NCBI GenBank assembly: GCA_001793235.1
Contig: MGHM01000015.1
Span: 1 to 52,175 of the forward strand
DNA length: 52,175 nucleotides
Source of the DNA: Candidatus Woesebacteria bacterium RIFCSPLOWO2_01_FULL_44_24b
GTDB taxonomy: Bacteria; Patescibacteriota; Microgenomatia; UBA8517
Direction of reading: 5' to 3'
The first letter of the stretch is position 1. The number at the start of each line of letters is the position of its first letter. Shown here piece by piece: positions 25,060 to 25,513 of the stretch. The position numbers and the translations under genes are program-made. The notes below the pieces were generated by a model, which saw only the letters and a program-made list of their open reading frames with translations, ran no database searches and was not told the DNA's origin.

Positions 25060-25513
25060 AATTTGAAATTTATATTTTTAAATTTTTAATCAATTTCTTT
25101 AATTAGAAAATGTAAAAGTTTACTTTGAACTTTTTGCGATGGCCGAGAATATCAAGGTTAATTCTTTAGCCTCTTTCCAAAGACTTAAACATTCTTCTTT
25201 CACACTTGGAGAATTATGAGCCAAAAGACGCAACCAATACATCGTTTCCTTTGACTCTTTTTTGCAGATAAAAATTTTGCTTCTAAAGTCCTTTTTACTT
25301 GAAGCGCCGTTGGCTTCTGAATAATTTGCTCCAACACTGGTTCCGCTTCGGACAAGTTGTGATACAATCGGTTTCGAAATAGTATCTAGTCTACATTTTT
25401 TACACAAGGATATTAATTCTTTGGAGAATTTGGTTGTTCTTTCTTCAAGGTCGTAATTTATATTTTTTAACATTTGAATTTGATTAAAAATTTTGAATTA
25501 AGAATTAAAAATT
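25060..25513. mobile_element. Candidate cassette: four-helix-bundle gene bounded by 34-bp imperfect inverted repeats built from heptamer units
   Basis: 25060-25093 matches the reverse complement of 25480-25513 at 27/34 positions, with a perfect 14-bp core (AAATTTTTAATCAA). The outer ends abut the tsaD start codon and the vanW stop codon. Confidence 0.5.
25120..25473 (-). CDS. Four helix bundle protein (23S rRNA intervening-sequence protein family)
   Basis: DLEERTTKF, SQLVRSGTSVGANYSEA, KKESKETMYWLRLL. Confidence 0.92.
   Translation of the reverse strand: MLKNINYDLEERTTKFSKELISLCKKCRLDTISKPIVSQLVRSGTSVGANYSEANGASSKKDFRSKIFICKKESKETMYWLRLLAHNSPSVKEECLSLWKEAKELTLIFSAIAKSSK

Follow-up and report, generated by a model that had tools for sequence, protein, structure and literature searches.

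A gene-bearing cassette resembling rRNA intervening sequences between vanW and tsaD in a groundwater Woesebacteria genome

The stretch of DNA analysed here (the window) comprises the 52,175 nucleotides of contig MGHM01000015.1 from Candidatus Woesebacteria bacterium RIFCSPLOWO2_01_FULL_44_24b, a groundwater bacterium with a very small genome (898 kb, 98% complete; tagged G000, the window being its contig C15). Between vanW and tsaD it carries an insert of 453 bases, in which a small four-helix-bundle (4HB) gene lies between mirror-image runs of about five 7-base repeats, AATTTTN in the 5′ arm and NAAAATT in the 3′ arm. The reading we favour, with a probability of about 0.62, is that this is an insertion cassette of the type known as intervening sequences (IVSs) in rRNA, placed in sense orientation exactly between the vanW stop codon and the tsaD start codon of a conserved vanW-tsaD-valS string. 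The evidence comes from chance controls on the repeats, from filled and empty junctions in related genomes, from an alignment with an insert in the 23S rRNA gene of the same genome and from the spread of similar cassettes through other lineages.

The cassette, its arms and its protein

The genes vanW, tsaD and valS and the open reading frame (ORF) of 117 aa in the insert are all on the minus strand. The features of the locus, in the order of transcription, are as follows.

25512-27215, minus strand: vanW, the upstream host gene (PG_binding_4 + VanW); the 5′ arm lies against its stop codon
25516-25537, minus strand: terminator-like G+C-rich hairpin TTCGTGGGAC AG GTCCCACGAA, palindromic without mismatch (8+8), with the T-rich tail TTAATTTTTA after it
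25480-25513, minus strand: right arm, sequence ttgattaaaaattttgaattaagaattaaaaatt; in the sense of transcription the 5′ arm, AATTTTT AATTCTT AATTCAA AATTTTT AATCAA, which starts at the vanW stop and ends 6 nt before the 4HB ATG
25120-25473, minus strand: 4HB gene, 117 aa, PF05635 / TIGR02436 ("23S rRNA intervening-sequence protein")
25094-25119, minus strand: inner spacer of 26 nt, from the 4HB stop codon to the 3′ arm
25060-25093, minus strand: left arm, sequence aatttgaaatttatatttttaaatttttaatcaa; in the sense of transcription the 3′ arm, TTGATTAAAAATTTAAAAATATAAATTTCAAATT, which ends directly at the tsaD ATG
24052-25059, minus strand: tsaD, the downstream host gene; its start codon abuts the 3′ arm
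21930-24023, minus strand: valS, after tsaD

A first-pass annotation of the window, made from its letters, had described the arms as inverted repeats whose outer edges touch the two host codons. Re-reading of the sequence bore this out: the arms match at 27 of 34 positions with a perfect 14-bp core (25080-25093 and 25480-25493), the tsaD ATG (25057-25059) adjoins the left arm and the vanW stop TAA (25512-25514) overlaps the right arm by 2 nt. The seven mismatches (arm positions 6, 7, 12, 13, 16, 19 and 20) do cluster in the variable positions of the units, as had been proposed, with six of them in unit positions 5-7. The claim that each arm is built from 7-nt units stood for the right arm, where period 7 is clear (17/21 self-matches), and less well for the left arm, where this period is weaker (0.67) and the best period is 8. 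A repeat search extended the inverted repeat to 71 nt at 70% (25059-25129 and 25444-25514), reaching into both ends of the ORF.

The arms were compared with what chance would produce. Their ungapped inverted-repeat score is 18, as against 9.9 ± 1.8 in dinucleotide shuffles, and was reached in 10 of 5000 of these; shuffled A+T-rich flanks, which would have undermined the first-pass claim had they done as well, therefore seldom equal the arms. As a genome control, the inverted-repeat score between 70-nt flanks was calculated for every one of 951 ORFs (mean 6.5, sd 1.3, 99th percentile 9.75). The three full-length PF05635 genes of the genome took ranks 1, 2 and 3, with scores of 20, 19 and 16.5, so that the genome-wide check of 4HB flanks found every full copy armed. 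Ranking all genes by the RNA duplex energy of their flanks was also tried and was uninformative, as G+C-rich coding flanks dominate over A-U-rich arms.

It is thus very improbable that the likeness of the arms reflects only chance and the composition of A+T-rich spacers holding a terminator tail and a promoter. Both spacers are indeed very A+T-rich and a terminator-like hairpin precedes the 5′ arm, but the shuffle and whole-genome controls reject this explanation, the same layout is found around unrelated units that contain G and C (GTAGNAN, CAGTAAC and CCAATAN), and a promoter scan gave no sigma-70-like site within either arm. A promoter for leaderless tsaD in the 3′ arm (TTGATT-15 nt-TAAATT-7 nt-ATG) was considered and dropped as unsupported. 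The palindrome at 25516-25537 (CGTGGGAC AG GTCCCACG) writes the last vanW codons (RGTGPT) immediately outside the 5′ arm; the same end peptide of VanW is encoded with no palindrome in G001, a relative of the same genus in which the junction is empty. Small G+C hairpins were also seen at the vanW-tsaD junction of several relatives that have hairpins there. No Rfam family matches at the cassette locus.

The 117-aa protein matches PF05635 with 57 bits (cut-off 33.8) and TIGR02436 with 78.7 bits (cut-off 24). Its AlphaFold2 model (pLDDT 93.3) has helices at 3-26, 33-55, 60-87 and 89-115. Foldseek matched the model to 2RLD (TM 0.8) and 2GSC (TM 0.82) and then to Avd, the accessory protein of diversity-generating retroelements (DGRs), in keeping with the shared fold to which the first pass had pointed, and the profile of the protein against 2RLD gave E = 1.3e-25. 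The nearest solved structures, 2RLD and 2GSC, are stand-alone "S23 family" proteins with five chains each, and Avd assembles into a positively charged pentamer and binds a structured RNA element (bioRxiv 10.1101/2023.10.23.563531). By homology with these, we infer that the 117-aa protein forms a pentameric ring. This helical bundle is the only ORF of the cassette, which encodes no transposase, nuclease or recombinase, and the protein has no match in the defence-system (padloc) or phage (phrogs) libraries.

It is scarcely credible that the gene encodes the Avd of a DGR or of a DGR remnant. It belongs to the same fold family as Avd, but there is no RVT_1 reverse transcriptase in the whole 98%-complete genome, the arms are short unit arrays and not a pair of template and variable repeats, and the best structural matches are the stand-alone S23 proteins rather than Avd.

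Filled and empty junctions and siblings in rRNA

Synteny of vanW and tsaD was found in 25 of the 29 tsaD loci of relatives that were examined, mostly with valS next. In G001 the junction reads ...caa TAA aa ATG ata... and holds no insert, and in five further relatives the gap between vanW and tsaD is 6-26 nt; over all six genomes the two genes are 3-26 nt apart. The reverse case was also found. The closest homologue of the 117-aa protein in G001 (60% identity) has AATTTTC-type arms and lies between two convergent genes, whose orthologues in the present genome (contig C3) are separated by a plain short spacer of ~20 nt, again an empty site. The junction that the cassette occupies here is empty in G001, and the site of the G001 copy is empty in this genome; comparison of the two sequences thus shows the vanW-tsaD cassette to be an insert. 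The search for empty junctions proposed in the first pass was therefore fruitful on both sides.

Among the relatives examined, a 4HB gene was found at the vanW-tsaD junction only in this genome. Five genomes of other genera (loci L039, L053, L058, L061 and L063) have gene-less hairpins of inverted heptamer arrays at this junction, and the units of these hairpins differ (CAAAT-, CTAATT-, AAAATT- and GTAGA-type). The junction was also seen to be a hot spot for unrelated cargo (L037, L041, L044-L046, L052, L059 and L060), comprising a PIN-type toxin pair, tgt-like genes (twice), an aminoglycoside-phosphotransferase-like gene, a cytidylyltransferase and DedA-family membrane proteins (three times).

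The sole 23S rRNA gene of the genome (C20:40387-44424) has a length of 4038 nt against a model of 2925 positions, i.e. it is ~1.1 kb longer. An ORF-less insert of ~135 nt is present in a hairpin loop between the conserved sequences ACCGAAGC and GGUAGGGGAGCGUUC, a loop which we take to be that of helix 45 (E. coli numbering). One side of this insert is made of AAUUUUU / AGUUUUU units and the opposite side of the complementary units. The 5′ arm of the cassette matches the 5′ half of the insert at 29 of 37 positions, and the 3′ spacer and arm are collinear with its 3′ half, the two sharing an identical 14-mer, TTGATTAAAAATTT. Alignment scores as high as these were obtained in none of 300 shuffles. 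Judged by this alignment, the cassette amounts to this helix-45 rRNA IVS carrying a gene in its loop. It lies itself outside the 23S helices, between vanW and tsaD, and the 23S gene is on another contig.

The term "IVS-like" used in the first pass is consequently more than an analogy, since the arms align collinearly with a helix-45 hairpin that has no ORF and belongs to the same heptamer family. The inference that such a cassette had entered the operon gains support from this kinship as well as from the empty sites.

Two further siblings without an ORF are found elsewhere in the genome, both at ordinary gene junctions. In one, at C16:49029-49150, a 45-nt remnant is still bordered by AATCAATTTCG-ATG and by TTCAATGAAAATTG, the 3′ signature; the other is at C3:19690-19790. 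In a relative (G033), a PF05635 gene with 58-nt arms lies inside the 23S gene. The 23S gene of the present genome also has a further insert of ~760 nt near model position 2300-2800, with a 76-aa ORF remnant, and at the corresponding place in the 23S gene of G033 a weak group I intron match was seen beside the 4HB cassette (L255 2016-2246).

Copies in this genome and across the Candidate Phyla Radiation

The other two full-length PF05635 genes of this genome are on contig C20, with GTAGNAN x4 upstream and NTNCTAC x4 downstream, and on contig C5, with ATTAAG-type units of period 8. The arms of both also span the distance from a neighbour's stop codon to the next start codon. A fourth PF05635 match, weaker at 37 bits and confined to profile positions 27-88, lies at C13:6699-7035 (+); no arms could be recognised beside it, and it probably represents a decayed copy. 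Arrays of period 7 are over-represented genome-wide, with 39 clusters as compared with 1-3 for periods 4-6 and 9-11 and 12 for period 8.

A set of relatives was drawn from 41 genomes of the order and class and contained 104 distinct PF05635 genes. The flank score was at least 12 for 61 of these genes and at least 10 for 77, where the 99th percentile of the control is 9.75. Their arms have periods of 7 nt (46 arms), 8 nt (14), 6 nt (4) and 10 nt (2). Arm similarity was correlated with protein identity (Spearman 0.26; 0/500 permutations as high), the arms being alike only at protein identities of at least ~50%.

A second set was made from the subfamily of the 117-aa protein by taking the best 80 of 293 relatives in species-representative genomes, of which 79 copies were usable. 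These are 57-69% identical to the 117-aa protein and come from metagenome-assembled genomes labelled Daviesbacteria, Levybacteria, Amesbacteria, Jorgensenbacteria, Wolfebacteria, Kaiserbacteria, Berkelbacteria, CPR2, Kazan and Saccharibacteria, a spread over the Candidate Phyla Radiation (CPR) that takes in Microgenomates, Parcubacteria, Saccharibacteria, Berkelbacteria, CPR2 and Kazan. With a score of at least 12 as the threshold, 73 of the 79 are armed. All 73 have AATTTTC... / ...GAAAATT units (AATTTTN/NAAAATT) and the inner motif AATCAATTTNCA-ATG, and they occupy 66 distinct junctions. Both neighbours are co-directional with the ORF in 51 of these cassettes and both are antisense to it in one. 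The suggestion that 4HB genes might generally lack such arms can therefore be set aside, as arms were found in 3/3 here, 61/104 in the relatives and 73/79 in the subfamily.

Taken together, the sequence comparisons show arms and gene as a unit that is inherited as one, each protein clade keeping its own unit sequence. By the same comparisons the unit sequence itself is under selection, because neutral spacer DNA would be randomised at such protein distances. Protein clade and repeat unit thus travel together across the CPR. The 117-aa protein is 60% identical within the genus and reaches 69% in other classes, with no fall with host distance; the values for TsaD are 71% for the same-genus genome and 39-66% over the family. 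The pattern points to transfer between lineages, because the identity of the 117-aa protein, unlike that of TsaD, does not fall with the distance between hosts.

Reading of the cassette, rival explanations and known systems

Folding of the transcript was predicted, as the first pass had proposed, and the arms were able to pair. In the predicted minimum-free-energy fold of a 471-nt transcript the core stem is closed (z = -2.6). The predicted hairpin of the arms only has an energy of -13.7 kcal/mol, compared with -6.7 ± 2.3 kcal/mol for shuffles (1/500 as good), and consists of helices of 5, 4, 2+2, 14 and 3 bp with 2x2 internal loops every 7 nt. The complementarity is specific to the register: in a cross-validation with the register chosen on the other arm half it was 74.6%, as against 61.5% when shifted by a unit. 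A gene for RNase III is present in the genome.

From these observations the following mechanism is proposed. The cassette would have no promoter of its own and be transcribed with the host operon. In the transcript the arms would pair to give a long A-U-rich stem with regularly spaced internal loops, closing off the ORF as a loop. RNase III could then cut the stem, as it does in rRNA IVSs, and the insert would thereby be tolerated in rRNA and between cistrons alike. The pentameric protein may recognise the repeated units of its own arms, of which there are 4-5 per arm, and in this way serve the maintenance or spread of the element. A ring reading 4-5 units is a reasonable guess because of the five-chain structures and the RNA-binding pentamer of Avd. 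The ORF is in sense orientation almost without exception, as would suit an element that depends on host transcripts for its expression and lives within them.

Several observations weigh against this reading. The cassette is present and nearly invariant in 22-27 metagenome contigs that encode an identical TsaD or 4HB protein, and exact-protein look-ups (with tsaD, 4HB and the rpe beside a second cassette) gave no strain-level empty alleles. Of 20 contigs read for this second cassette (gap-4HB-rpe), 10 were aligned, and their copies are all identical; the differing ORF lengths among its contigs are due to start choices of the gene caller and not to differences in sequence. Among the contigs with the vanW-tsaD cassette, one has a single change in the 3′ arm. 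As there is no empty allele and almost no variation among contigs of the species, there is no sign of recent movement within it and the cassette is fixed. At neither of the two filled/empty pairs, the flanks of which have diverged, could a target-site duplication be seen, and the 117-aa protein has no recognisable catalytic domain. A GTAG-armed gene stands upstream of the same glycosyltransferase gene in three genera, which implies long vertical inheritance and would agree with either a domesticated or a selfish role. The mismatches of the arms show no excess of G·U over A·C (55 vs 47 in the relatives, 50 vs 64 in the subfamily), and so nothing in them favours selection of the stem as RNA over symmetry of the DNA, although this test is weak because most mismatches are at unit positions that may never pair.

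The last group of opposing observations comes from arrays in genomes without a resident gene. AAATTNN x4 arrays occur in 26 of the 41 genomes, where a reversed control pattern gave essentially no hits. They are found in G024 (15 hits) and G025 (9 hits), neither of which has a PF05635 gene, and G001, though it does carry such a gene, has none of them elsewhere. The arrays of G024 and G025 imply that arrays outlive, or do not need, a resident protein. GTAG arrays are most numerous in the three genomes with a GTAG-armed gene (15, 17 and 11 hits), and 32 of the 41 genomes have none. The counts for GTAG are thus supportive of dependence on a resident cognate protein and those for AAATTNN are not.

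In a single contig of the species (L165; ENA ERZ28563660 scaffold_241145) a 73-nt deletion was seen inside the 4HB ORF, with arms and flanks unchanged. This is either decay of the ORF in a subpopulation or an artefact of assembly.

The G·U result would be in keeping with a rival explanation in which the arms acted on DNA, as stacks of binding sites for the 4HB protein comparable to the subterminal sites of transposon ends, with host enzymes moving the cassette and the RNA stem a by-product of symmetry. It is also consistent with such a role that the sequence of the units is conserved and tracks the protein clade, rather than mere complementarity being kept, that filled and empty sites are found at many junctions and that the ORF-less derivatives resemble miniature inverted-repeat transposable elements (MITEs). 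Even so, we regard this explanation as unlikely: no transposase, nuclease or target duplication was seen, and the orientation of the ORF with respect to its neighbours (51 sense vs 1 antisense) and the siblings in rRNA helix loops suggest a life within transcripts. Moreover, published IVSs of the PF05635 family are processed as RNA (PMC4990558) and the family member Avd binds RNA.

The fixation of the cassette in the species could alternatively mean that it serves the host. The heptamer hairpins would then be intercistronic elements acting in mRNA processing, stability or translational coupling, similar to repetitive extragenic palindromic (REP) sequences, with the 4HB protein as their domesticated partner in trans, and the cassette would be a stable regulatory module of vanW-tsaD-valS. 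The synteny of the GTAG cassette in three genera, the gene-less hairpins of five unit types at the vanW-tsaD junction in other genera and the persistence of arrays in genomes without a PF05635 protein all agree with this, and with the arms paired both the vanW stop and the tsaD start would lie at the foot of a single stem. Yet the 73 armed cassettes are at 66 different junctions, which implies that no particular operon is served, and the junction of the nearest relative works with no insert. The lack of a fall in protein identity with host distance suggests transfer between lineages, and selfish elements typically show decayed ORFs and remnants that lack them. A host-serving module is for these reasons distinctly improbable, and the IVS-type insertion cassette is retained as the preferred reading.

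Intervening sequences have been known in rRNA since about 1990. Those without an ORF occur in 23S helices 25 and 45 of Salmonella, Yersinia, Campylobacter and others, and an ORF-bearing 23S rRNA IVS is found in Leptospira. The helix-45 IVS of Coxiella burnetii has a 28-bp stem with GACAGAT heptamers before the S23p ORF and is cut by RNase III (PMC4990558). Like the ORF-bearing IVSs of Coxiella and Leptospira, the cassette has terminal inverted repeats that can form a long stem, with an ORF of the PF05635 family enclosed in the loop, and like that of Coxiella it has tandem heptamers in the stem beside the start codon. It differs from both in lying between protein-coding genes, its outer ends being a stop and a start codon and not helix 45. 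RNase III excision, demonstrated for the Coxiella IVS, may by analogy also apply to the cassette. The resemblance to ORF-less 23S IVSs is that a sibling in this genome occupies the helix-45 loop. In the CPR, rRNA insertions are reported to encode 23S_rRNA_IVP in a few cases (PMC11270868); the passages of that paper and of the papers on ORF-less IVSs that were searched deal with rRNA genes only, and the portion of PMC11270868 covered by a term search has no heptamer arrays, inverted repeats or non-rRNA copies.

As short, multicopy, intergenic elements with gene-bearing and gene-less forms, found between co-directional genes, the cassettes are similar to MITEs and to the hairpins of REP sequences and bacterial interspersed mosaic elements (BIMEs). 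They share with transposable elements the trait of presence or absence between species together with several copies per genome (ORF-less ones here). In contrast to MITEs, REP sequences and BIMEs, no transposase or REP-associated tyrosine transposase accompanies them, only the 117-aa bundle; their arms are made of 7-nt units that differ by protein clade, and no target duplication was seen.

Intergenic heptamer repeats that are described as unexplained have been reported from Xanthomonas and Nostoc (GGGNATC; PMC4692102) and from Beggiatoaceae (TAACTGA; PMC4679880). They resemble the present arrays in being tandem 7-nt units, usually ~4 per array, with an enrichment between co-directional genes near stop or start codons. 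The arrays described here differ from them in forming inverted pairs around, or being derived from, a PF05635 gene, and the searched portion of PMC4679880 makes no mention of a four-helix bundle, S23 or an intervening sequence. Other literature that touches on the subject includes heptamer repeats in Geobacter and surveys that found the PF05635 family near cas genes. In the literature searched (on PF05635, IVSs, heptamer repeats and Patescibacteria) nothing was found that links non-rRNA PF05635 genes to inverted heptamer arms.

The cassette is thus a genuine IVS-type element outside rRNA, in an operon junction. One small genome displays the element family in three states, with its gene in an operon, gene-less in helix 45 of 23S rRNA and as remnants elsewhere, and the locus accordingly bears on the origin and mobility of rRNA IVSs and on the role of their ORFs. 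It also offers an explanation for the arrays of heptamer repeats that several phyla have near the ends of genes. In annotation terms, it means that armed "four helix bundle protein" genes are inserts and not members of the operons that surround them.

A wider proposal can be put forward tentatively, and with more doubt than confidence: PF05635 proteins and inverted heptamer arrays might together make up a self-contained class of minimal mobile elements without a known transposase. The pentamer would read the 4-5 units of its own arms, and the element would settle where a transcript tolerates a hairpin (rRNA loops and stop-start gaps), leaving ORF-less hairpins. If this is true, rRNA IVSs and the excess of bacterial 7-nt repeats are two faces of one system.

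Arrays were also seen within coding regions. A gene-less GTAG-type hairpin at 29397-29470 (+) lies inside a nucleotidyltransferase-like ORF of 301 aa (28731-29636). It reads GTAGTAA GTAGCAT GAAGCGT GTAGCAA, a 15-nt spacer ggGAAAAACAGAAcc and ATACTAC ATTCTAC ATGCTAC ATTCTAC, and is translated in frame as ...VVSSMKRVAREKQNHTTFYMLHSTL... In the coding region of tsaD, a period-7 array at 24463-24493, TTCGGATTTCGAATTTAGGATTTCGAATTTC, encodes EKFEILNSKSE in a TsaD loop of variable length. Both were considered as insertions, which is supported for neither: the loops vary in length among orthologs, which have a linker of similar length at the site of the hairpin, and the net excess is small or nil (3 and 5 residues over the same-genus ortholog); the TsaD loop of G001 is 5 residues shorter and that of most other relatives is of equal length. 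On contig C20, a single GTAG array (C20:90614-90652) in a glycosyltransferase gene (C20:90121-91221, minus strand) is translated in frame as ...PHATSYMLHSTHY..., a peptide close to the YMLHST made by the in-ORF hairpin at 29397-29470. In pairing with the 5′ arm of the adjacent 4HB cassette, this array surpasses that cassette's own 3′ arm.

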